In this document: piece by piece, positions 7,112 through 60,472 of the stretch | Layout of the letters: every line of letters begins with the position of its first letter | Numbering within the stretch: position 1 is the first letter of the stretch | Notes under the pieces: model-generated | The model's input: the letters and a program-made list of their open reading frames with translations, nothing else | What the model was told of the DNA's origin: nothing | The model's database searches: none | Source of the DNA: Candidatus Parcubacteria bacterium | GTDB taxonomy: Bacteria; Patescibacteriota; Microgenomatia; UBA12405 | Direction of reading: 5' to 3' | DNA: 64,000 nt | Assembly: GCA_023443725.1 (NCBI GenBank) | Contig: JAEZTF010000010.1 | Span: 29,948-93,947, forward strand | Position numbers and translations under genes: made by a program

Positions 7112-7863
7112 AGCTTAGATTTATTTAAAAAGACATGAAAACTAAGGCAGAGTGCCATAATAATTCCTGGAGTTCCATCTAAAAATCCAAATCTAAAGAT
7201 ATAGTTTTGGAGAAATTTACCAATTGGAAAGAAAATAATTTCAAAAAGATTAGTAGAAACTTTTTGGTCAAATAATTCTTGAGATCTAATAGTGGAATAA
7301 AGATCAATTTTCTCCATAAAAGATTTTAAATTTTTATGAGAATTATGATTAATAACTAAATCTGTTTCTTTGGTTGTTTTTACAGATACCCAAGTTTCAT
7401 GAACCTGACCATCAAATTTACCAAAATTTTTATTGAACAATCGAGTGAATTTTAAAGAAGCCGTTTCACCATGTTTTAACGTATTACCAAGGAAGATGTC
7501 TTGGCGTTTAAAAGAATAATTGTTATATTTATGTTTATCGATATGATTTAAAAATCCGATTAATTTTTTACTTGGATATTCGTCAGCATCAAGCCAAAAG
7601 ACTAAATCATTGGATGCTTTGCAAATTCCAAAATTACGTTGAGCGGAAAAATCATTATTTAATCCCCTATTAAAGACTTTAACATTTCTGTTTTTTGAAT
7701 TTAATTTTTTAGCAGTTTCGACAGTATCGTCTGTAGAATTGTCATCGACAATAATTACTTCATTAATAGTTTTGCATTCGTCTAACCATTTAAAATTGTT
7801 CTTTAAATTTTCCGATTCGTTTTTGGTGATCAGGAGAAGCGAGATGTTAGTCAATTTTTTCAT
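7090..7863 (-). CDS. Family 2 glycosyltransferase, LPS-core/WaaE-like.
   Basis: IIVDDNSTDDT ... LDADE (DxD motif). Confidence 0.7.
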   Translation of the reverse strand: MKKLTNISLLLITKNESENLKNNFKWLDECKTINEVIIVDDNSTDDTVETAKKLNSKNRNVKVFNRGLNNDFSAQRNFGICKASNDLVFWLDADEYPSKKLIGFLNHIDKHKYNNYSFKRQDIFLGNTLKHGETASLKFTRLFNKNFGKFDGQVHETWVSVKTTKETDLVINHNSHKNLKSFMEKIDLYSTIRSQELFDQKVSTNLFEIIFFPIGKFLQNYIFRFGFLDGTPGIIMALCLSFHVFLNKSKLWHLSQL

Positions 7864-8704
7864 GATTTAATGTGTTTCTAATCTTTAAAATTGATTCTTC
7901 AATGGTAAAAATAGTATTTAATATTATAGCTTGAATCTTAGGAAGATGTTTTTTAAAAAATATTTTTCTAGATTTATACCAATAATTTAGAGATGTTCGA
8001 TATTTATTAGGGGTGCTAACTCCTCCGATATGTATTACGAAAGAATTTGGATCAAAAATAACTTTCAGACCATTTTCATTGTTTTTTATTCCAAAATCCA
8101 CATCTTCCATATACATAAAATAATCTTCACTAAATAAGTTTAATTTATTTCTTTTTAATCATCTGAATATCATATATGCACCACAGACTGCTGATACTTC
8201 TTTGGGTTCTGTAATTTTAATATTTTGTTCTATCCAGAATTCTTTGGAATATTTATTTTTTGGAAATATTTTTTTGAGATTAGTAAATTCAAAAATTCCT
8301 GTTAAAAATGTGGGTTTATTATTTGCACTTGGATATATTTTATGGTTTGGAAAAAAAATTTTTCCACCAATAACACCTATACTAGAATCTTCATTAATTA
8401 GATTAAATGTTTTTTTTATTGAATCGTTAGTAAAATAAGTATCTGGATTTAATAGTAGGATTAATTTTGATTTTGATATCTTTATTCCTTGATTAACAGC
8501 TTTTGCAAATCCTAAATTTTTTTTGTTTTTAATTATTTTAATATTTTTATTTTTTTTAAGATTAAAATTATTTGAATTATTATCAATTATTATTATTTTA
8601 TTTAGTATTTTTGATATTTTTTTTGTTGACTGAATTAATTTTTTTAAACAGTTTGTTGAATTATAATTAACTACAATTAAATCTAATTTTTTTTCTATTG
8701 ACAT
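7847..8704 (-). pseudogene. Family 2 glycosyltransferase interrupted by a single in-frame TGA at 8159..8161.
   Basis: ORF 8159..8704 holds the N-terminal GT2 part (IVVNYN...IIIDNNS...LLNPDT...CGAYMIFR*). The 42 nt after the stop read in frame as LKRNKLNLFSEDYF. The same frame continues into MYMEDVDFG...HIGG (7847..8116), the conserved GT2 C-terminal motif. Confidence 0.7.
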
Positions 8705-8731: not shown

Positions 8732-11146
8732 GTGATTATAAATACTTTATTGAAGAAATTTTATTTTTTATTTTTCTTAATTTTACCATTCGTTTTACCA
8801 TATGACGTTTTAGCAGAAAATTATTTAGTCGATAATTTTGATTCTTTGGGAAACTGGGTTTTTATTCCTAGTAGTACATCTGATTTTAATAGTTGGTCTG
8901 TGTCAAATAATAAATTGATAGGTAATATAAACAGAAAAGGTAGTTCACTTTTAATATCAAAAATGAATAACTTTGGTGAAAATTTAGATTTCAGTTTTAA
9001 TGGGACAAATATTAATGGTATTGATCAAGAAGTTTTATTTGGTGTAAAAGACTTAAACAATTACTATGTTTTGAATACTAGATTTGAAGAACCTTCATGG
9101 TCTCAGGATAAAAATATTAATCAAGTTGTTTTATGGAAATATTATTCTGGTACTTATCATGAAATGAAAAGGATTGAACTTAAAAATTTTGGTATTAATT
9201 TAGAGAAAAATGTCGCTTATGAATTTTCAATAATCATTAGAAATAATGAGATTGTAGTTTATATTAACGATATTTTAATATTTTCCATTGTTGATCAAAA
9301 TTTATTTTATGGCGGTGTTGGTTTTTGGAATTGGGGAGGTGATTATAGTAAAACAGTTAATTATTATTCTGATTTAAGAATTAATTCATTTTTGACTCCA
9401 ACTCCTACCCCTATTCCAACCAACACTCCGTTCCCTGATCCTACATTAACACCAACATTGGCACCGACTATAACACCTACTCCAACACCAACTTTTACAC
9501 CTACACCAACGCCTACTCCGATACCAATTCCTAAAAAAAAGATTTTTATATTACCAGGATTAGGGGCGAGCTGGAACCCGGAGGCAATTGTTTACAATAA
9601 AAATGTTAGTAATAATGATTGGAAAATGACTCCTTTTGTTAATAATTATGATGGCTTGATTGAGAATTTAGAAAAAAATGGTTTAGTAAGAAATCAAGAT
9701 TTCTTTGTTTGGAATTATGACTGGAGAAGATCAATTAGTGAAAGTGAAAATAATTTTAATATTTTTCTAGAAAGTAAAAATATAAGTAATAATGATGAAA
9801 TTTATTTAATAGGTCATAGTCTTGGTGGTGTTGTGGCCAGAATATGGGGACAAGAACATTCAAATGATCAAAGATTAAAAAATATAATTACTTTAGGTTC
9901 TCCTCATTTAGGTTCTTTGGACGTATATACTGTTTGGAATGGTGGCAAAGTGGCTAATTCAAAAGGATTAAGTTCGGTAATTTTTCAAATTTTATTAAAC
10001 TTACAAAATAAAGGTTTTATTACTGATCTAGATAAATTAAGAGCTTATGCCCCAGTGGTTAAAGACTTATTGCCTACTTATGATAATTATGTTTCTAGAA
10101 ATGGTATTTTATTAAAACAAAATCAATTGGAAACAAAAAATAATTTTTTAATAAATAAAAATAATCAAGTTAGTAAAATATCAGATAAATTGTTTTTATC
10201 GACTGGTGTTGGATTTTCAACTCCAAATATAATTAAATTAATCAACAGGTCGGTTTTTGATAAAACTTTTGGTTTATGGCCAGATGGAAAATTTGTGGGT
10301 TATGGTTATGAAAATGGTGATGGTACTGTTTTAAAAAATAGTGCTAGTTTTGGTTCAACTGAATTGACTGAATTAAACTCTGATCATGGTGAAATTGTAA
10401 ACAACTCTTTGACATTCATAATGTCAAAACTTGGTTTAGAGAGTAAGAAAGTTGATTTTATTTATAATGATAATTTTGCTAATAGTTTGATTGTTTTTGT
10501 TGGTTCACCAGCGACTGTGTCTTTAAAATGTGAAAACGATATTTTAAATGAAGTTGATGGTTTTGTAGTTATAAATAATAAAAATTATAAAGATTGTAGT
10601 TTAAATCTTAATCCCATTGATAATGGGACTGTTCATTTGGTAGTTGGAAATACTAATAATAACGATTGGAATTATATTGAGAAAAAAGTCTCATTAAGTA
10701 ATAAAGAGAAAGTAATTATTAATTTTTCTGATGGATCGATAAAAATTGATAAGTTAAATAAAGATTTTTTAATCTCTTGGATAAAATCTGACTTGCAACA
10801 AATTAAACTAGATAGTGCTATTAAATATTTAGAAAAAGGAAATTTAAACCAAGTGGTAAAGATGGTATTTGTTTATAGATGGAAAACAAAAGAAATGATT
10901 GTTAGTCAAAGAATTTTAAATAATTTGTTTATTTTAGGATCGATAAATAAATCAAACAAGAAAAATATAAATTATAAGTGGATATATATAAATAAAGATT
11001 ATTTAAGTAAAAGAATAAAAAATAATCGTTACTCTGCTTATAGTTTTGATAAATTAAATAAATTTATTGAATACAAAAAATATCCGGATGAAGAAATGGC
11101 TAGATCTTTTTTTGATGGATATTTAATGGAGGCTTTAGGAAATTAA
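8732..11146 (+). CDS. Secreted multidomain protein with an N-terminal lectin/ConA-like domain, a Pro/Thr linker and an alpha/beta-hydrolase lipase/esterase domain.
   Basis: Signal peptide. PT-repeat TPTPTPIPTNTPFPDPTLTPTLAPTITPTPTPTFTPTPTPTPIP. Nucleophile elbow LIGHSLGGVVAR (GxSxG). Confidence 0.6.
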   Translation: MIINTLLKKFYFLFFLILPFVLPYDVLAENYLVDNFDSLGNWVFIPSSTSDFNSWSVSNNKLIGNINRKGSSLLISKMNNFGENLDFSFNGTNINGIDQEVLFGVKDLNNYYVLNTRFEEPSWSQDKNINQVVLWKYYSGTYHEMKRIELKNFGINLEKNVAYEFSIIIRNNEIVVYINDILIFSIVDQNLFYGGVGFWNWGGDYSKTVNYYSDLRINSFLTPTPTPIPTNTPFPDPTLTPTLAPTITPTPTPTFTPTPTPTPIPIPKKKIFILPGLGASWNPEAIVYNKNVSNNDWKMTPFVNNYDGLIENLEKNGLVRNQDFFVWNYDWRRSISESENNFNIFLESKNISNNDEIYLIGHSLGGVVARIWGQEHSNDQRLKNIITLGSPHLGSLDVYTVWNGGKVANSKGLSSVIFQILLNLQNKGFITDLDKLRAYAPVVKDLLPTYDNYVSRNGILLKQNQLETKNNFLINKNNQVSKISDKLFLSTGVGFSTPNIIKLINRSVFDKTFGLWPDGKFVGYGYENGDGTVLKNSASFGSTELTELNSDHGEIVNNSLTFIMSKLGLESKKVDFIYNDNFANSLIVFVGSPATVSLKCENDILNEVDGFVVINNKNYKDCSLNLNPIDNGTVHLVVGNTNNNDWNYIEKKVSLSNKEKVIINFSDGSIKIDKLNKDFLISWIKSDLQQIKLDSAIKYLEKGNLNQVVKMVFVYRWKTKEMIVSQRILNNLFILGSINKSNKKNINYKWIYINKDYLSKRIKNNRYSAYSFDKLNKFIEYKKYPDEEMARSFFDGYLMEALGN
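9395..9532 (+). repeat. Low-complexity ACNCCN repeats encoding the Pro/Thr linker.
   Basis: Visible tandem degenerate repeats. A similar linker is encoded at about 49730..49860. Confidence 0.7.
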
Positions 11147-11180: not shown

Positions 11181-11750
11181 ATGCAGTCTATGGTGAAAAG
11201 TGGAGAAAATTTGAATGCCCCCATTAATTTAAAAGATTATCTTAGAGTAGTTCCAAATTGGCCGGAAAAAGGAGTAAATTTTATAGATATAACTACGGTT
11301 TTGGAAAATAGAAAAACTTACAGTGAAACAATTGATAGAATGACACAATTAGTTTTAGATCTAGGTCAAGATGTGGATAAAATTGTGGCTATTGACGCAA
11401 GAGGTTTTGTATTTGGTGGTGCCATTGCTAACAGACTAAATCTCGGTCTTTCGTTAGTCAGAAAACCGGGGAAATTACCATACGATACTATTAGTGAAGA
11501 ATATGAAAAAGAATATGGTAAAGATACTCTCATAATGAATGTAGACACAATAAAACCAGGTGAAAAAGTAGTGATTGTGGATGATCTCTTGGCTTCTGGT
11601 GGAACAGCAGAGGCGGCAGCTAAATTGGTTGAAAGAGAGGGTGGTGAAGTTGTTGGAATGATCTTTATGGTGAATTTACCTTTCTTGGGTGGAAGTGAAA
11701 GATTAAGTCAATATAATCCAAGATGGTTAGTTGAATATGATTCGGAGTAA
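11181..11750 (+). CDS. apt: Adenine phosphoribosyltransferase.
   Basis: PRPP-binding motif VVIVDDLLASGGTAEAAAKL. A strong promoter (TTGACT-17-TAGAAT) directly abuts the ATG, so the mRNA is possibly leaderless and the true start may be ATG 11190. Confidence 0.85.
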   Translation: MQSMVKSGENLNAPINLKDYLRVVPNWPEKGVNFIDITTVLENRKTYSETIDRMTQLVLDLGQDVDKIVAIDARGFVFGGAIANRLNLGLSLVRKPGKLPYDTISEEYEKEYGKDTLIMNVDTIKPGEKVVIVDDLLASGGTAEAAAKLVEREGGEVVGMIFMVNLPFLGGSERLSQYNPRWLVEYDSE

Positions 11751-11756
11751 ACTTTT

Positions 11757-12797
11757 TTAAAGTTTACTTATTTCAATCATCAATTCTTCCAATATTTTTT
11801 CTTCAGGTACGGTTTTTAAGACAACACCTTTTTTAAAAATGACGCCTTGATGATGACCACCAGCAACACCGATATCGGCTTCTTTGGCTTCCCCTGGTCC
11901 ATTAACCACACAACCCATAACGGCAACAGTAATTTTTTTATCTATACCGACTAATGCTTTTTCAACTTTATTGGCTAATCCAATTAAATCAATTTCGGTT
12001 CGACCACAAGTAGGACAAGAAACAAAATTAACTCCCCTATCTCGTAACTTTAAAGATTTTAATATTTCCCAACCAACACGAACTTCTTCAACTGGATCTC
12101 CAGTTAAAGAGACACGAATCGTATCACCAAGTCCTTCAAAAAGCATGATTCCTAAACCAACGGAACTTTTTATAGTGCCACTATTCAAAGTGCCTGCTTC
12201 AGTGATACCAAGATGAAGTGGATAATCGACTTTTTGAGAAAGCAGTCGATAAGCTTCAATAGTTCTTTGAATATCAGAAGCTTTTAAAGAAATGACAATA
12301 TCGTGGAAATTAAGTTTTTCTAAGATTTGAATATGTTTTAGAGCACTTTCAACCATAGCTTTAGCAGTTCGACCATATTTTTCTTCTGCTTCTTTCTCTA
12401 AAGAACCAGTATTGATACCAATACGAATAGGAATTTTTTTATCTTTACATGCGTCAACAACTTTCTGAACATTTTCATTAGAGCCAATATTGCCTGGATT
12501 TATACGAACTTTATCAACTCCATTTTTGATTGATTCTAAGGCTAATTTATAATCGAAATGAATATCAGCAACTAAAGGAATATTTATTCCTTTTTTAATA
12601 TCTTTAATGGCTTTGGCAGCAATCATATCAGGAACAGCAACGCGAATAATTTCACAACCGGCATTTTCTAATTTTTTTATTTGAGAAACAGTGGCTTTAG
12701 CGTCTCGAGTGTCAGTATTGCACATGGATTGAATAGAAATTGGATTACCACCACCAATTTTTATATTATCTACTTGAACAGTTCTAGTTTTTTTCAT
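11757..12797 (-). CDS. ispG: 4-hydroxy-3-methylbut-2-en-1-yl diphosphate synthase (IspG/GcpE).
   Basis: [17 protein letters not shown] ... [10 protein letters not shown] ... [10 protein letters not shown]. Confidence 0.9.
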
Positions 12798-12833: not shown

Positions 12834-12909
12834 TGGTGGTCGCTACAGGACTCGGACCTGTGACAACCGCAATGTGAATGCGGTGCTCTACCAACTGAGC
12901 TAAGCGACC
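12834..12909 (-). tRNA. tRNA-Val (anticodon CAC) with encoded CCA.
   Basis: Reverse complement GGTCGCTTAGCTCAGTTGGTAGAGCACCGCATTCACATTGCGG...AGCGACCACCA folds as a canonical cloverleaf. Confidence 0.8.
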
Positions 12910-14444: not shown

Positions 14445-14696
14445 TTAAGCTTTGATGACAGAAACAAAACTTTTGCCTAGTTTTTTGAAGAATTTGACAA
14501 TTCCTGGTTTGATAGCGTAGATTGTATAATCTTTGCCTGTTTTTGTGCCAGGGCCACCTCGAAAACTAGAACCGACTTGTCGAACAATAATTTGACCAAC
14601 ATCTATTTTCTGGCCACCAAATTTTTTAACTCCTCGCCTTTGCCCAGGACGATTGGCTTTTTGATTTGTTTTACCTTGTGTTTTTTTATGTGACAT
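14445..14696 (-). CDS. rpmA: 50S ribosomal protein L27.
   Basis: KKFGGQKIDVGQIIVRQVGSSFRGGPG...GKDYTIYAIKPGIVKF. Confidence 0.85.
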   Translation of the reverse strand: MSHKKTQGKTNQKANRPGQRRGVKKFGGQKIDVGQIIVRQVGSSFRGGPGTKTGKDYTIYAIKPGIVKFFKKLGKSFVSVIKA

Positions 14697-52758: not shown

Positions 52759-53910
52759 TCATTTTACTAAATTTTTATCAAAAACATTCATTATTGATTT
52801 GGCGGTGTTTTCCCAACTAAATTTGTCGGCTTGTTGTTTGCCAATTAATGAATATTTTTGCCTAACTTTGGGCTGTAAAATCTCAACCATTCTTTCAACC
52901 AGATCTGATTCTTTATTAGGGTCGATAAACAAACCACATTCAGCAACTACTTCTTTAAATGGAGGTATATGGGAAACTATTACCGGGGTGCCAATTTTCA
53001 TAGATTCAATAGCAGGAATACCAAAACCTTCATAAGTACTTGGTAAAATTGAAGCTATAGCATTTTGATAAAGAGTCCATTTTTGATCGTTATCAACAAA
53101 ATCTGTAAAAATCACCTTATCTTCTATCCTCTCTTTTTTGACAGTTTGAAAAATTTCTTCGAATAACCAACCTTTTTTACCAGCAATAACGAGTTTAGGA
53201 ATCAATCTTCCCCCATCCCCTTCTTTGACAAGACGGGGGGTAATATTATTTTGTTTTAAATATTTTGAATAAGATCGAATTAAAAAAGGAATGTTTTTGT
53301 TGGGTTTGAGAGTACCGAGGTATAGAAAGTAACTATTAGCTTTTAGTGAGTAGTTAGACAAAATTTTTTGTTGAGTTGTTTGATCAATTTTTGGTGGAGT
53401 GTCGACACCGTTGTAAGCAATACTAATTTTTTGTGGGTCAATAGAATAAGTTTTGATGATTTCGTCTTTGGAAAATTGGGAAACAGTACAGATATGTTTG
53501 GATTTTTTAATTGATTGAATAGTCCAATTTATGAGTTGATATAAATCTTTTTTGGTAAATTGGGATTGATATTTAAGATAACCGAGATCATGAATAGTAG
53601 GAATAGTAGGACAAGGACAAATAATTGGTGAATAATGACTAGGAGAAAAGAATAAATCTAATTTTTCAGTTTGAAAAAAAAGATGTAATGGCAGAGAAAA
53701 ACGTGTCCATAATTTTTTAGGGCCAAAAACACGATATTGCCAATTGGCATTAGCGGAAGGTAAATCTGATGATGGTTGATCTTTAAGATAAATAATATAT
53801 TGATTATTTTTGTCTAATTGATGGAGTTTAATTAAAACATTGAAAGCATATTGACCAACGCCAACTTTATTAGAAACATTAGCTTCGTTACCATCGATTC
53901 CGATTAGCAT
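52759..53910 (-). CDS. GT4 glycosyltransferase.
   Basis: EGFGIPAIESMKIGTPVIVS. Confidence 0.8.
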   Translation of the reverse strand: MLIGIDGNEANVSNKVGVGQYAFNVLIKLHQLDKNNQYIIYLKDQPSSDLPSANANWQYRVFGPKKLWTRFSLPLHLFFQTEKLDLFFSPSHYSPIICPCPTIPTIHDLGYLKYQSQFTKKDLYQLINWTIQSIKKSKHICTVSQFSKDEIIKTYSIDPQKISIAYNGVDTPPKIDQTTQQKILSNYSLKANSYFLYLGTLKPNKNIPFLIRSYSKYLKQNNITPRLVKEGDGGRLIPKLVIAGKKGWLFEEIFQTVKKERIEDKVIFTDFVDNDQKWTLYQNAIASILPSTYEGFGIPAIESMKIGTPVIVSHIPPFKEVVAECGLFIDPNKESDLVERMVEILQPKVRQKYSLIGKQQADKFSWENTAKSIMNVFDKNLVK

Positions 53911-56044: not shown

Positions 56045-56492
56045 TTATTTTTGATAGATCGATGATATCGCCTGCTTTAAGGTTTATTTTTTTAGTTTCA
56101 TTTAGATTTAACTCAATGACATATTTAGCTGGTTGACTATTTTGAAGGATTTTAGTGGAGTTAGTTTCACTAACATTAATAATATCGGTAACCTTACCTT
56201 CTGAATTAAGCCAAATCATGTCTAAAGGAATGAACGTATCTTTCATCCAGAAAGGTAGAACTCCATTTTTGGAAAAAATAAAAATCATGCCACAGTTAGG
56301 ACAAAGGTTGGTTCGATTGGATAGACCAGCTGATTTTTGAGGAGTGGTTTTGGCGACTTCTAATTTGTAATCGATATTTTTAATTTTTAAATTGACAGTT
56401 TCAAACTTAGGTGGCGTTTTTTTGTAAAAGAAAAAAATAACAATTGGAATAGCGATGAGTATAATTAAAGTGATGGTAAGATTTTTTGACAT
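56034..56492 (-). CDS. DUF192 (COG1430) family protein.
   Basis: N-terminal TM, GLSNR...CGMIFIF...FWMKDTFIPLDMIWL...YVIELN...GD. Confidence 0.7.
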   Translation of the reverse strand: MSKNLTITLIILIAIPIVIFFFYKKTPPKFETVNLKIKNIDYKLEVAKTTPQKSAGLSNRTNLCPNCGMIFIFSKNGVLPFWMKDTFIPLDMIWLNSEGKVTDIINVSETNSTKILQNSQPAKYVIELNLNETKKINLKAGDIIDLSKINDQ

Positions 56493-57748
56493 ATTTTTTG
56501 ACTAACTTTGTTCCAAGTATAATTATTTTTAACATATAAATAACCATTTTGGCCAAATTGACGACAAAGTTTAGGATTAAAAATTAATTGTTGAATTTTT
56601 TGCTGAAGATCATCAATATCATCAGTTTTGAAAGTTAACCCCCCGTTTGATGATTTAACAATTTCTTTTAAAGATGGAATATCTGAAGTAATAACGGCTT
56701 TTTTTCTAGCCCAACTTTCTACTAGAACAAGGCCAAAACTTTCCTGAATTGATGGTAAAACTAAAAATTGGCATTGATCAATAATTGTAATTAAGTCTTT
56801 ATTGCTAACATTAAATTTGAAATGAATTTGTTTTTGGACCGATTTGGGAAGTGATTCAAAATATTTTTTTATTTGAGGAAAAAATAAAGTTTTTTGACCA
56901 ACAAGTATCAATCTTCCCTTAATCCCTTCTTTGACAAGACGGGAAAAACTATTTATTAACAAGTCGACACGTTTATGGGCGGCAAGAGAACCAATAAATA
57001 AGATTGTCAAACCCTTTCCGGATAAACCGGTTTTTCCCTTAAAAAGGGAAACTTTTTTTTCTTTTTTTAAAAATATATCCTCAACACCGTTGCCGGCAAG
57101 AATAATTTTTTTTTGGTTTATATTTAATTTTTTAATAAAAAAATCAGTTTCATATTTAGTTAAAGTCCAAAGATAATCAGCTTGTTGGAGAGTTTTGATA
57201 AGAGGTAAACGAGAAAAGTCGGGATCTGATTGGTGAAAAGAAGAATTGATGAGAAGTTTAGTGGATAATATTTTTCTGAAAAAATTAGCGTATAGAATAA
57301 TGGTGGTGGGAAGTGGGCCGGCAATAATTAACTCTGGTTTAAATTTAATTATTTTAATAGTAGCCCTAATAAAAGGTATGAGTTTAAAAATTGGTCCTTT
57401 TTGAAAAATTTGTAGCAATTGATGAAAGTAAGAGTTTTTGGGGATAAATAAATTAATAAATTTTAGAGGTCGACGAAGATGATGATAAACAGGAAGATAA
57501 ATAAAACCCTTTCCGGATAAACCGGTTTTTCCCTTAAAAAGGGAAACTTTTAAGCTCCCTTTTTTAAGGAGAGATGTCTGAAAGACAGAGGGGTTTTTCT
57601 TAATGAAATCGTCGGTGCTAGAGCAATCGGACGATAAATAAATTACATCATGGCCTTGAGATTCTAATTGATGGCTAAGTTGATAAACTACTTTTGATCC
57701 CCCATCGATAGCGGGAGGAAAAATATGACTAATTGCAAGTATTTTCAT
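56465..57748 (-). CDS. GT4 glycosyltransferase carrying two in-frame copies of a 48-bp repeat.
   Basis: ILAISHIFPPAIDGGS, and ESFGLVLVESWARKKAVITSD in the C-terminal half. Peptide KVSLFKGKTGLSGKG occurs twice. Confidence 0.75.
   Translation of the reverse strand: MKILAISHIFPPAIDGGSKVVYQLSHQLESQGHDVIYLSSDCSSTDDFIKKNPSVFQTSLLKKGSLKVSLFKGKTGLSGKGFIYLPVYHHLRRPLKFINLFIPKNSYFHQLLQIFQKGPIFKLIPFIRATIKIIKFKPELIIAGPLPTTIILYANFFRKILSTKLLINSSFHQSDPDFSRLPLIKTLQQADYLWTLTKYETDFFIKKLNINQKKIILAGNGVEDIFLKKEKKVSLFKGKTGLSGKGLTILFIGSLAAHKRVDLLINSFSRLVKEGIKGRLILVGQKTLFFPQIKKYFESLPKSVQKQIHFKFNVSNKDLITIIDQCQFLVLPSIQESFGLVLVESWARKKAVITSDIPSLKEIVKSSNGGLTFKTDDIDDLQQKIQQLIFNPKLCRQFGQNGYLYVKNNYTWNKVSQKICQKILPSL
57009..57056. 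repeat. 48-bp exact direct repeat, copy A: AAACCCTTTCCGGATAAACCGGTTTTTCCCTTAAAAAGGGAAACTTTT.
   Basis: Identical to 57504..57551. Contains the palindromes CCGG-ATAAA-CCGG and TTTCCCTT-AAA-AAGGGAAA. Confidence 0.85.
57504..57551. repeat. 48-bp exact direct repeat, copy B.
   Basis: See copy A. Confidence 0.85.
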
Positions 57749-59169: not shown

Positions 59170-59203
59170 TTGACATTGTTTTGATATTTGTTAAAGTATT
59201 TTT

Positions 59204-59290
59204 AGTTTGTCGAGAGAGTCTTAAAAAAGACTAGCAACCGAGCCTCAAAGGGGTCACGGTGCAATTCCCTACTTGGGAGGACAAGCCTTT
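59204..59290 (+). ncRNA. Candidate SAM riboswitch (SAM-I clan or SAM-I/IV-like variant) in the metK leader.
   Basis: P1 TTTGTC...GACAAG. The junction GAGAGAG matches the SAM-I J1/2-P2 AGAGAGG. The strongly conserved core elements GCAACC and GGTGCAATTCC (SAM-I GGUGCYAAUUCC) are present, and a P4-like hairpin TCCCtacttGGGA follows. It lies downstream of a TTGACA(59170)-16-TAAAGT promoter. Confidence 0.5.
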
Positions 59291-59313
59291 ATAAATTTAA
59301 ATAAAGGAAAAAT

Positions 59314-60432
59314 ATGAATTATTCCCTATTTACGTCAGAATCAGTTTGTGCTGGTCATCCCGATAAAATTTGTGACCAAATTTCAGATACTGTTTTAGAT
59401 ACTGCTTTAGAAATTGATAGAAATTCAAGAGTTGCTTTAGAAACTTTAGTGACCACTAATAAAGTAATAATGGCAGGCGAAGTGACTTGTAGTAAAAAAT
59501 TAGACTATGGACAAATCGCAAAACAAGTAATTAAAGATTTAGGTTATACTAATCCTCTTTTAGGTTTTGATACAAATGCAGACATAGAAGTATTGGTTCA
59601 TCAACAATCAAAAGATATTGCAATTGGAGCCGATAATGACGGTGCAGGTGATCAAGGAATGATGTTTGGTTATGCTTGTAATGAAACACCACAATTGATG
59701 CCATTATCAATTATGTTGTCACAAGAATTATGCAAAAAAATGGATAAACTGCAGTTTGAAAGATTAAATTATTTAAGACCAGATGGTAAGGCAGAAGTGA
59801 CAATTAAATATAATCAAGGAAAACCAGTGGAAATAGTAAAAGTGGTTTTGGCTAAACCAATGGATCTAATAGTTGAAGATACTCAAGCAAAAAAAGATTT
59901 GTATGAATTGGCTGTGTTGCCAATTTTGGAAAAATATAAACTTAATAAAGTAAGCGTAGAAAATGTAATTTTAAATGGTACAGGTAGATGGGAAATTGGT
60001 GGACCAGCAACAGATACTGGAGTAACTGGTCGAAAAATTGTAGTCGATACTTATGGTGGTATGGGACGAATTGGTGGAGGATGTTTTTCAGGTAAAGATC
60101 CAACAAAAGTAGATAGAAGTGCAGCTTATGCTGCTAGATTTATTGCCAAAAATGTAGTGGCTGCAGGATTGGCTGATCGTTGTGAAGTCCAATTGGCCTA
60201 TGTAATTGGTGTTAGAGATCCAATTTCAAAAGCAATTGAAACTTTTGGAACAAACAAAAAAGAAATAAATAAAATTGAAGAATTTGCTTGGAATTTAATG
60301 AATTTATCGGTTAAAGGAATAATTGATAAATTTGATTTAAAAAGACCAATTTACAAAAATACAGCTAGATATGGTCATTTTGGATATGATGAATATCCTT
60401 GGGAACAAATCAAAACCCCTCTGTCTCGATAA
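59314..60432 (+). CDS. metK: S-adenosylmethionine synthetase.
   Basis: FTSESVCAGHPDKICDQISD, GGGCFSGKDPTKVDRSAAYAARFIAKNVVAAGLA. Confidence 0.95.
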   Translation: MNYSLFTSESVCAGHPDKICDQISDTVLDTALEIDRNSRVALETLVTTNKVIMAGEVTCSKKLDYGQIAKQVIKDLGYTNPLLGFDTNADIEVLVHQQSKDIAIGADNDGAGDQGMMFGYACNETPQLMPLSIMLSQELCKKMDKLQFERLNYLRPDGKAEVTIKYNQGKPVEIVKVVLAKPMDLIVEDTQAKKDLYELAVLPILEKYKLNKVSVENVILNGTGRWEIGGPATDTGVTGRKIVVDTYGGMGRIGGGCFSGKDPTKVDRSAAYAARFIAKNVVAAGLADRCEVQLAYVIGVRDPISKAIETFGTNKKEINKIEEFAWNLMNLSVKGIIDKFDLKRPIYKNTARYGHFGYDEYPWEQIKTPLSR

Positions 60433-60472
60433 ATCGAGACATCTCCCCTTGAAAAAGGGAGAAGTCTTAAAA
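60425..60472 (+). terminator. Tandem hairpins after metK.
   Basis: GTCTCGAtaaaTCGAGAC and TCTCCCcTTgaaaaAAGGGAGA are followed by a T-rich tract. Confidence 0.5.

Follow-up and report, generated by a model that had tools for sequence, protein, structure and literature searches.

In-frame hairpin elements in a GT4 glycosyltransferase gene of Shapirobacteria-group bacteria and their probable derivation from a DUF559 nuclease unit

The in-frame colonization of proteins by palindromic repeats is best documented in Rickettsia. The Rickettsia palindromic elements (RPEs) of Ogata et al. (2000) are described in two accounts (PMC10969869, PMC3184786) as ~105-150 bp long, restricted to Rickettsia, lacking a known associated enzyme, and encoding a conserved peptide that is compatible with the fold of the host protein. 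Repetitive extragenic palindromic (REP) sequences carry a conserved GTAG or CGTC tetranucleotide at the 5' end (PMC3733652). On the enzyme side, VSR, DUF559 and I-Bth0305I have been grouped in one PD-(D/E)XK clade (PMC3424549), and Vsr-like 'EDxHD' homing endonucleases such as I-Bth0305I have been described (PMC3239194). This study examined a 64-kb stretch of contig JAEZTF010000010.1, assigned to a Candidatus Parcubacteria bacterium (hereafter the window), in which a 48-nt sequence with two palindromes occurs twice within a gene encoding a GT4 glycosyltransferase. The evidence indicates, with a probability of roughly 0.75, that this 48-mer belongs, as one unit, to a family of small DNA elements with two hairpins that is found in Candidatus Shapirobacteria and its near relatives within the candidate phyla radiation (CPR), and that the parent of the family is a small unit encoding a DUF559 nuclease between inverted copies of the element.

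Compared with the described systems, the elements resemble RPEs in being palindromes dispersed both between genes and, in frame, within unrelated protein genes. They differ from RPEs in size (units of 48-54 nt and inverted doublets of about 93-125 nt), in their CPR host, in the coding use of both strands, and in their tie to DUF559; going by description, length and a host other than Rickettsia set them apart from the RPE family, and no relationship in sequence is expected. With REP sequences they share short imperfect palindromes (a 20-40-nt class) and the inverted doublet, the REPIN, that is the mobile form of REPs (PMC3116915, PMC3337134). A single small gene also lies between inverted cognate repeats, as for the REP-associated tyrosine transposase (RAYT), and repeat family and gene lineage appear to co-vary. 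In contrast to REPs, the GTAG/CGTC tag is absent and the conserved termini are AAAG... and ...GGGTTT(AAA); the flanked gene is a PD-(D/E)XK Vsr-like DUF559 gene and not an HUH Y1 transposase; and, unlike REPINs, the element overlaps and completes the open reading frame (ORF), with many copies being intragenic. REP and RPE families are also far more abundant, REPs with tens to hundreds of copies in a genome, the copy number here appearing far lower (1-3 strict-pattern copies per representative genome, a count that takes in no divergent families genome-wide). Size, taxon, terminal motifs and enzyme all differ, and the elements are therefore members of neither RPE nor REPIN-RAYT.

Transposable elements of the miniature inverted-repeat kind (MITEs) with in-frame ORF fusions, such as BOX, RUP, BRE, Correia and ERIC (PMC3184786, PMC10969869), are likewise small and non-autonomous with inverted termini, and the likeness extends to an apparent internal-deletion origin from a larger coding unit and to fusion with or within host ORFs; unlike MITEs, the parent belongs to no recognized insertion sequence or transposase family, and the elements are much smaller than typical MITEs. 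The DUF559 unit and I-Bth0305I share the nuclease fold, a small selfish-looking gene, and presence or absence at orthologous sites, whereas the DUF559 gene is free-standing, with no intron, intein or NUMOD domains, and has hairpin inverted repeats and non-coding derivatives. With regard to homing by the DUF559 unit, presence and absence at orthologous spacers was seen and cleavage is putative. Small dispersed repeats (SDRs), which Elhai et al. are said to have described in 2008 in Nostoc and other cyanobacteria, are reportedly very short hairpins that lie in conserved genes and do not destroy them. To our knowledge no associated nuclease gene has been reported for SDRs, and their taxa and sequences differ from those of the Shapirobacteria elements. 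No description of in-frame hairpin elements in CPR, or of DUF559 genes with hairpin inverted repeats, was found in open-access papers and bioRxiv, which is weak evidence for novelty.

The two copies lie at 57009-57056 and 57504-57551, are 100% identical and are spaced 495 nt apart, exactly as the initial annotation of the sequence had proposed. The chance expectation for a 48-mer repeat was 0 in 100 dinucleotide-preserving shuffles, and no further copies were found within the window with up to three mismatches allowed. Both copies are read in the same frame of an intact 427-aa ORF on the minus strand (56465..57748), in which each encodes the peptide KVSLFKGKTGLSGKG, at aa 67-81 and aa 232-246. 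The ORF matches Pfam Glycos_transf_1 (PF00534, E 1.6e-30) and, at weak-to-moderate levels, GT4 enzymes in the PDB; its AlphaFold (AF2) model (pLDDT 88.4, pTM 0.87) has a two-Rossmann GT-B fold with MshA, BshA, PimA and PglA as structural matches. The host gene is a GT4 (GT-B fold) glycosyltransferase. The model falls below a pLDDT of 50 only at aa 57-78 and 233-243, which are element-encoded and form coil between secondary-structure elements. Copy 1 (57504..57551, minus strand), which scored 81.3 bits against the covariance model described below (CM R1), occupies a loop here called site 1, and copy 2 (57009..57056, minus strand, CM R1 80.7 bits) is a solo element at site 3, in the inter-domain linker directly before the C-domain strand 247-252.

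Each copy contains an 8-bp palindrome, TTTCCCTT/AAGGGAAA, and a 4-bp palindrome, CCGG/CCGG, and has a GC content of 44% compared with ~30% for the window; the common frame, the palindromes and the GC enrichment had all been correctly recognized at the outset. One correction concerns folding: strong folding is a property of the 101-nt region around the upstream copy (-34.8 kcal/mol, z -3.5, closing pair AAAACCC/GGGUUUU), and the 48-mer alone folds little better than shuffles (z -1.1 to -1.5 as RNA and -2.0 to -2.2 as DNA).

Outside the window, a scan with the structure-based pattern TTTCCCTT-N3-AAGGGAAA-N2-CCGG-N5-CCGG picked up near-identical copies in other genomes and metagenomes of the Shapirobacteria type, of which 12 came from species-representative genomes and a further 18 from JGI metagenome contigs, and the element was found in JGI, ENA, NCBI and Logan assemblies. 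Approximately 60% of the copies are intergenic, and both orientations occur. The rpmI-rplT spacer of the infC operon holds the element in three genomes (L008, L009, L012; L numbers denote the fetched loci), and further intergenic copies lie 3' of secY-like, recG and M23-peptidase genes and 5' of dprA and of a UPF0102 gene. The coding copies are located in loops, linkers or termini. They include the N-terminus of the dihydrouridine synthase Dus (L031), the linker between the HMA and transmembrane parts of a DsbD-like protein (L015, antisense frame, peptide PDKPAFPLRRETF), and the GT4 gene itself, with sense copies at site 1 in L006 and L011, antisense copies at site 1 in L021, L025 and L029, and sense copies at site 3 in L011, L022 and L029; in L029, one and the same GT4 gene thus combines an antisense copy (site 1) with a sense copy (site 3). 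In other genomes, a ribosomal-protein spacer, Dus and the ends of DUF559 genes contain the 48-mer exactly as it stands in the window.

Conservation of the element was seen at the DNA level. The positions beyond the forced pattern are nearly invariant as well (AAAGGGTTT on the right and AAAG on the left), with the reservation that retrieval of loci by a stem-forcing pattern inflates the apparent conservation. Between the window and four orthologs, the element is identical at 43-45 of 45 nt (96-100%), compared with 66-69% DNA identity in the GT4 flanks and 47-56% at the third codon positions of those flanks. Only two of the six frames of the 53-nt consensus are open, both of them frame 0, one on the sense strand (VKVSLFKGKTGLSGKGL) and one on the antisense strand (FKPFPDKPVFPLKRETL), and the coding copies use no others. 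Dispersal, frozen DNA, the frame filter and the loop location therefore point to a DNA element that is filtered by selection and not to a protein motif. The original suggestion of a small MITE- or REP-like element tolerated in frame was borne out by these outside matches, which lie in intergenic DNA and unrelated genes and in both orientations, and by the lack of the peptide in most orthologs.

Several searches returned nothing that bears on the element. Rfam held no relevant family, a gathering-threshold scan of the whole window giving only tRNAs and a SAM riboswitch; a 31-aa window-derived peptide had no match at E<=0.001 among 1.84 billion representative proteins; and a 40-aa synthetic peptide query joining sense and antisense translations had no word-sharing candidates in protein databases. 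Viral contigs scanned with two patterns gave no match, and there is therefore no sign of a phage vector. A census of GC islands showed that such elements are not strewn across the window, and the phenomenon is therefore local to a few of its genes. Three other identities were considered and dropped: a P-loop, which GKTGLSGKG does not fit (GxxxxGK[ST]), the segment being disordered and absent from most orthologs; an integron attC site, to whose GTTRRRY/RYYYAAC ends the termini bear a loose likeness, with no cassette arrays or integrase context seen and with copies lying within conserved genes; and a CRISPR repeat, for which there is no array.

Orthologs of the GT4 gene number in the hundreds, and the named ones belong to Candidatus Shapirobacteria (CPR/Microgenomates). 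In their alignments the enzyme is well conserved apart from four hypervariable places (near aa 52-82, 144-165, 206-246 and 250-280), in which a limited set of peptide modules recurs, each at more than one spot; the set includes KVSLFKGKTGLSGKG, STIYHLRPN, SPSFHQGRGPGGGF, RLVKEGVRGRL, CPVKGRGREGF and LLLKANSYLLPAK. The KVSLFKGKTGLSGKG module is carried by nine of 120 orthologs. An ortholog 88% identical to the window protein (P0002) has it at site 1 only, one of 84% identity (P0003) at site 3 only, and a more distant one (P0013, 60%) has its own variant of the module at both sites, while in P0043 site 1 reads PDKPVFPLKRENS, the opposite-strand translation of the same element DNA. DNA alignment against P0002 and P0003 showed that the sites are cassette replacements and not clean insertions; the earlier description of in-frame insertions is refined in this respect. 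The GT4 sites are hypervariable loops in which element families substitute for one another.

The same alignments point to a mosaic origin for the window allele, which is 94-99% identical to P0002 over columns 1-600 (94% in 301-400, otherwise 98-99%) and 99% identical to P0003 over columns 601-700. On this pattern of identities, the allele is a recombinant of a site-1-only allele and a site-3-only allele; since it is a mosaic of single-copy alleles, its two copies are most simply, and probably were, united by allelic recombination. Intragenic copying may also have contributed, since the two intragenic copies of L011 have a private G>A substitution in common that the third copy of that genome lacks. 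As a separate observation, recombination between the 48-bp direct repeats of the window gene, which are long enough for homologous recombination, would excise exactly 495 bp (165 codons) and keep the frame, with the N-terminal domain largely lost; the orthologs examined included no allele deleted in this way.

A covariance model (CM R1) was built from 31 element copies and searched against the fetched loci and the window, where it picked up weaker relatives in both. The resulting superfamily plan reads, from 5' to 3', (T)AAG, hairpin B, a variable hairpin C and RGGGTTTA. Hairpin B is TTTCCCTT/AAGGGAAA or a compensated variant (e.g., CCTCCCTT/AAGGGAGG), and hairpin C may be CCGG/CCGG, GTCTC/GAGAC, GTCCC/GGGAC or others. 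On the strand that corresponds to DUF559 sense, the window element accordingly reads AAAG, hairpin B, hairpin C (CCGG/CCGG) and AAAGGGTTT(AAA). In the model alignment 99.4% of cells pair, 8 of 12 pairs have changed on both sides, and none of 500 shuffles reached the observed level, although these pairing statistics are overstated because the alignment was fitted to the model.

Elements occur as solos and as head-to-head doublets with AAACCC/GGGTTT termini. At site 1 of the window gene, a divergent hairpin relative of the 'M1 type' (57545..57597, plus strand; CM R1 20.1 bits, E about 0.05) is inverted and abuts copy 1, and site 1 is therefore a 93-nt head-to-head doublet (57504-57596, about GT4 aa 52-82) with AAACCC...GGGTTT termini, of which copy 1 is the right-hand half. 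The same 93-nt doublet recurs, inverted, at this GT4 site in L021, L025 and L029. The MITE traits present are the terminal inverted repeats (TIRs) of the doublets, the small size and the lack of a transposase gene. Many copies lie in a TTTAAA-like context (TT|TAAACCC...GGGTTTA|AA) that would fit either longer TIRs or the duplication of TA or TTAA; the copies in GT4 are without it.

The association with DUF559 was found in other genomes, where element copies form the ends of DUF559 genes. In four loci (L010, L017, L018, L024) the element overlaps the 3' end of an ORF of ~150 aa that ends in ...KFIEARKVSLFKGKTGLSGKGLK and a stop codon. This ORF encodes a DUF559 protein (PF04480, E 8e-27; 3hrl, E 3.7e-14), for which Foldseek returned 3hrl (TM 0.85) and I-Bth0305I (3r3p_B; TM 0.80, E 2e-4), with Vsr more distant. 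The DUF559 protein has a Vsr-like PD-(D/E)XK nuclease fold, and residues of catalytic type do not vary within the family: D67, E78, D80, D91, R94 and D95 are invariant and H84 is present in at least 90%. The left end of the unit consists of TTTAAACCC, hairpin C' and hairpin B' (the inverted element), followed after about 12 nt by the ORF, and the right end consists of hairpin B, hairpin C and GGGTTTAAA. In L018 the unit is 505 nt long and DUF559 is its only gene. The DUF559 stop codon lies within the terminal GGGTTTAAA or just past it, and the last ~17 codons plus the stop are the element itself; in L017 and L024, the 3' end of the gene is the exact window 48-mer. GT4 and the DUF559 ORF read the element in one and the same frame.

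A search for DUF559 homologs allowed the association to be tested on loci not selected for the element. C-terminal tails of the hairpin-B type were present in 96 of 120 homologs (100% down to 46% identity), and the tail peptides (RKVSLFKG..., RKASLSRE..., SPPCQGRG, LPFLRGD..., LSLVKGR...) are of the same module kinds as those in the GT4 loops. All five independently fetched DUF559 loci, whose proteins are 47-75% identical and lie in five neighborhoods, had hairpin ends: one, inverted, lies 20-30 nt upstream of the start, and the other forms the tail. Independently, the covariance model detected both flanking ends in three of these loci and, in a fourth, the 3' end. The unit termini agree within a unit and differ between units (AAACCC/GGGTTT, TTAACCCACCC/GGGTGGGTTAA, CAATCCC/GGGATTG, AAACCT/AGGTTT). 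Across the units examined, the gene between the inverted elements was DUF559 in nine of nine.

Doublets without the gene ('empty' doublets) were found in L017, L019, L020, L024 and L032. The L019 doublet is identical to the L018 unit over 55 of 55 nt on the left and over 23 nt or more on the right. The spacer of the empty doublets is ~25 nt long (CTATTCTTGCCATGAAGTAAGTTAAAG) and resembles the start of the ORF (ATGAA...) fused to its end (...GAAGCAAGAAAAG), reading ATGAAG..TAAG in L019. These junctions suggest that the doublets are internal-deletion derivatives of the DUF559 unit. Orthologous spacers differ in their content: between ligA and Fic, L034 has a DUF559 unit and L035 no more than a solo element, and downstream of recG a doublet stands by itself in L019 and L032 but is accompanied by a unit in L024. 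Two further observations were made at these loci. In L024 (9424-11023), about 1.3 kb of DNA with a 115-aa ORF, which may be a nested insertion, interrupts the DUF559 gene, whose two parts cover aa 1-31 and aa 82-130. In the conserved ligA-Fic-holB neighborhood (L034 7676-7966 vs. L035 6001-6414), a 96-aa GIY-YIG nuclease ORF and the DUF559 unit are counterparts, and small selfish-looking nuclease genes seem to swap at the ligA-Fic-holB spacers.

Combined, the results favor the two-hairpin DNA element family with the DUF559 unit as its parent, and a sequence of steps can be proposed. The DUF559 unit would be the autonomous parent, with its nuclease recognizing the terminal hairpins or their sequence and thereby mobilizing the elements; doublets would be internal-deletion derivatives of the MITE or REPIN kind, and solos would be half-elements. 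Spread may proceed in a homing-like manner, with nuclease-triggered breaks repaired by copying from an element-bearing template, and cassettes could also pass among alleles through ordinary homologous recombination. Selection would retain copies in genes only if they are in frame, stop-free and in disordered regions, and the element may be open in the GT4 frame because the DUF559 tail uses that frame. Under this scheme, the window GT4 allele would have gained its site-1 doublet and site-3 solo by recombination of alleles carrying one each.

A number of points weigh against this reading, beyond the inflation of conservation and pairing noted above. The 64-kb window contains no DUF559 gene, and the link therefore rests on other genomes. 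Strict-pattern copies are few, with two in the window. In GT4 the element takes the place of a native loop about as long as itself and adds no length, which simple transposition does not predict, and neither a clear target-site duplication nor a recent transposition event was found. DUF559 is no known transposase, and a nuclease domain of ~130 aa alone is unlikely to catalyze strand transfer; hairpins that flank a small gene could be plain terminators, and the antisense strand of the element is terminator-like. The model leaves unexplained the replacement rather than lengthening of loops, the low copy number, and ectopic integration by a ~130-aa domain.

The most serious rival is that the hairpins are host cis-elements (terminators, mRNA-stabilizing or protein-binding sites, roles that have been put forward for REPs) selected at gene ends, the coding copies being accidental and the tie to DUF559 an effect of gene boundaries. 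Many intergenic copies do begin right after a stop codon, the plus strand of copy 2 is terminator-like (57033-57051, antisense to the GT4 gene), and such a function could account for the high DNA conservation. However, most intergenic copies are co-oriented with the upstream gene, so that A's and not a U-run follow the hairpin, and the infC-rpmI-rplT operon has a copy in its interior. Nor would a role as terminator account for the inverted doublets with matched termini, the deletion junctions, the co-varying ends of the DUF559 units or the presence of one doublet in either orientation at a single GT4 site. This explanation is accordingly considered unlikely.

Next in standing, and less probable still, is that the elements are ordinary REPs or REPINs mobilized by an IS200-like Y1 (RAYT) transposase with DUF559 as a bystander. 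The size, hairpins and inverted doublets are REPIN-like (PMC3116915, PMC3337134), and L033 contains an IS200-like Y1_Tnp fragment (30.5 bits) 4 kb from a DUF559 unit; but that fragment, an ORF of 132 aa (2082-2480), aligns with no more than the C-terminal half of the Y1_Tnp profile and has no flanking covariance-model matches, the tag expected of REPs is replaced by AAACCC/GGGTTT termini, and it is DUF559 that the inverted elements flank in every unit examined.

A purely intragenic duplication or gene conversion in GT4, without a dispersed element, was the alternative raised in the initial annotation and is very improbable. The identity of the two copies and the private substitution shared by the L011 copies speak for it, and leave room for a contribution of this kind, but as the sole explanation it is refuted by the element matches outside the window, among them the exact 48-mer in the ribosomal-protein spacer, Dus and DUF559 gene ends; the antisense copy at the same GT4 site and the mosaic of single-copy alleles also argue against it. 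An ancient functional peptide repeat of the glycosyltransferase (e.g., a glycine-rich binding loop) would fit a glycine- and lysine-rich peptide read twice in frame, yet 111 of the 120 orthologs lack it, one reads the opposite strand at the same site, both stretches are predicted to be disordered, and their synonymous sites are frozen in a gene that is otherwise saturated, which refutes it. The combination of no other copies and a peptide shared by the orthologs, which would have indicated such a repeat, is the reverse of what was found. Lastly, a k-mer-length repeat made by a metagenome assembler can be dismissed, for although 48 nt is near common k-mer sizes and the source is a metagenome-assembled genome (MAG), the same 427-aa protein is present on four independent contigs (50-200 kb), both 48-mers are in L038, and the element recurs in assemblies from four sources, so that an artifact is excluded.

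Taking the family of two-hairpin elements and its DUF559 parent a step further, it may tentatively be proposed that Shapirobacteria-group CPR bacteria carry a new class of ultra-small (~0.5 kb) DUF559 elements bounded by hairpin inverted repeats, with each nuclease lineage keeping its cognate doublets and solos; this broader proposal is held with less than even confidence. If true, the class would be a functional parallel to RAYT-REPIN built on a different enzyme, a second REPIN-like partnership of nuclease and repeat that is PD-(D/E)XK-based, and its miniatures would time and again rewrite housekeeping proteins in frame, at surface loops, linkers and termini. The DUF559 link, if true, would also assign a role to a 'domain of unknown function' that is very widespread. 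The tiny size of both the protein (~150 aa) and the candidate DNA substrates (48-125 nt) makes the partnership directly testable. In the streamlined CPR genomes, four loops of one enzyme have been repeatedly overwritten by different hairpin families, which shows a general route by which selfish DNA can create protein-loop diversity. On a practical level, the elements introduce hypervariable regions and spurious 'conserved peptides' into alignments of CPR proteins, and also create short exact intragenic repeats that can confound assembly and promote in-frame deletions.

Other hairpin modules were detected in the window. A decayed module of another family (56907..56943, minus strand) encodes the peptide RLVKEGIKGRL at GT4 aa 270-280 (site 4) and resembles the DUF559 end of the L036 type. 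A second module of the RLVKEG type (53201..53237, minus strand; peptide RLVKEGDGGRL) lies in an unrelated GT4 gene (52759..53910, minus strand), in the structurally corresponding loop that follows the first C-domain helix; the two modules have 89% DNA identity, and the RLVKEG type recurs at sites 3 and 4 in 10 GT4 orthologs. At the 3' end of metK, an M1-type hairpin element (60412..60472, minus strand; CM R1 17.4 bits), closely similar in sequence to that at 57545-57597, encodes the last five residues of MetK (TPLSR) plus the stop codon. This MetK tail is missing in L003 and, in L004, consists of a different element family read antisense. Directly upstream of metK (59314..60432), a SAM-I/IV (S-adenosylmethionine) riboswitch was identified at 59202-59323 on the plus strand (Rfam RF01725, 42.7 bits, just above the gathering threshold), and the window contains three tRNA genes (Rfam RF00005; 5140-5296 on the plus strand, 12837-12909 on the minus strand).

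Related observations were made in the fetched sequences. L004, from a 906-kb Shapirobacteria-type scaffold, contains another hairpin family (GCCCTGCCCTGTCAAGGGAAGGG..GGGAAGGGTTT, peptide CPVKGRGREGF) with four copies within 21 kb (7844-7920, 10651-10727, 11692-11768, 14492-14568), located in four different genes of one glycosylation cluster. Additionally, several MAG records (CAYSME01, CAYRYK01 and others, among L008, L009 and L010-L016) bear the title 'uncultured Gammaproteobacteria bacterium' and carry Shapirobacteria-type genes and sequence of ~30% GC, and their Gammaproteobacteria labels look wrong.

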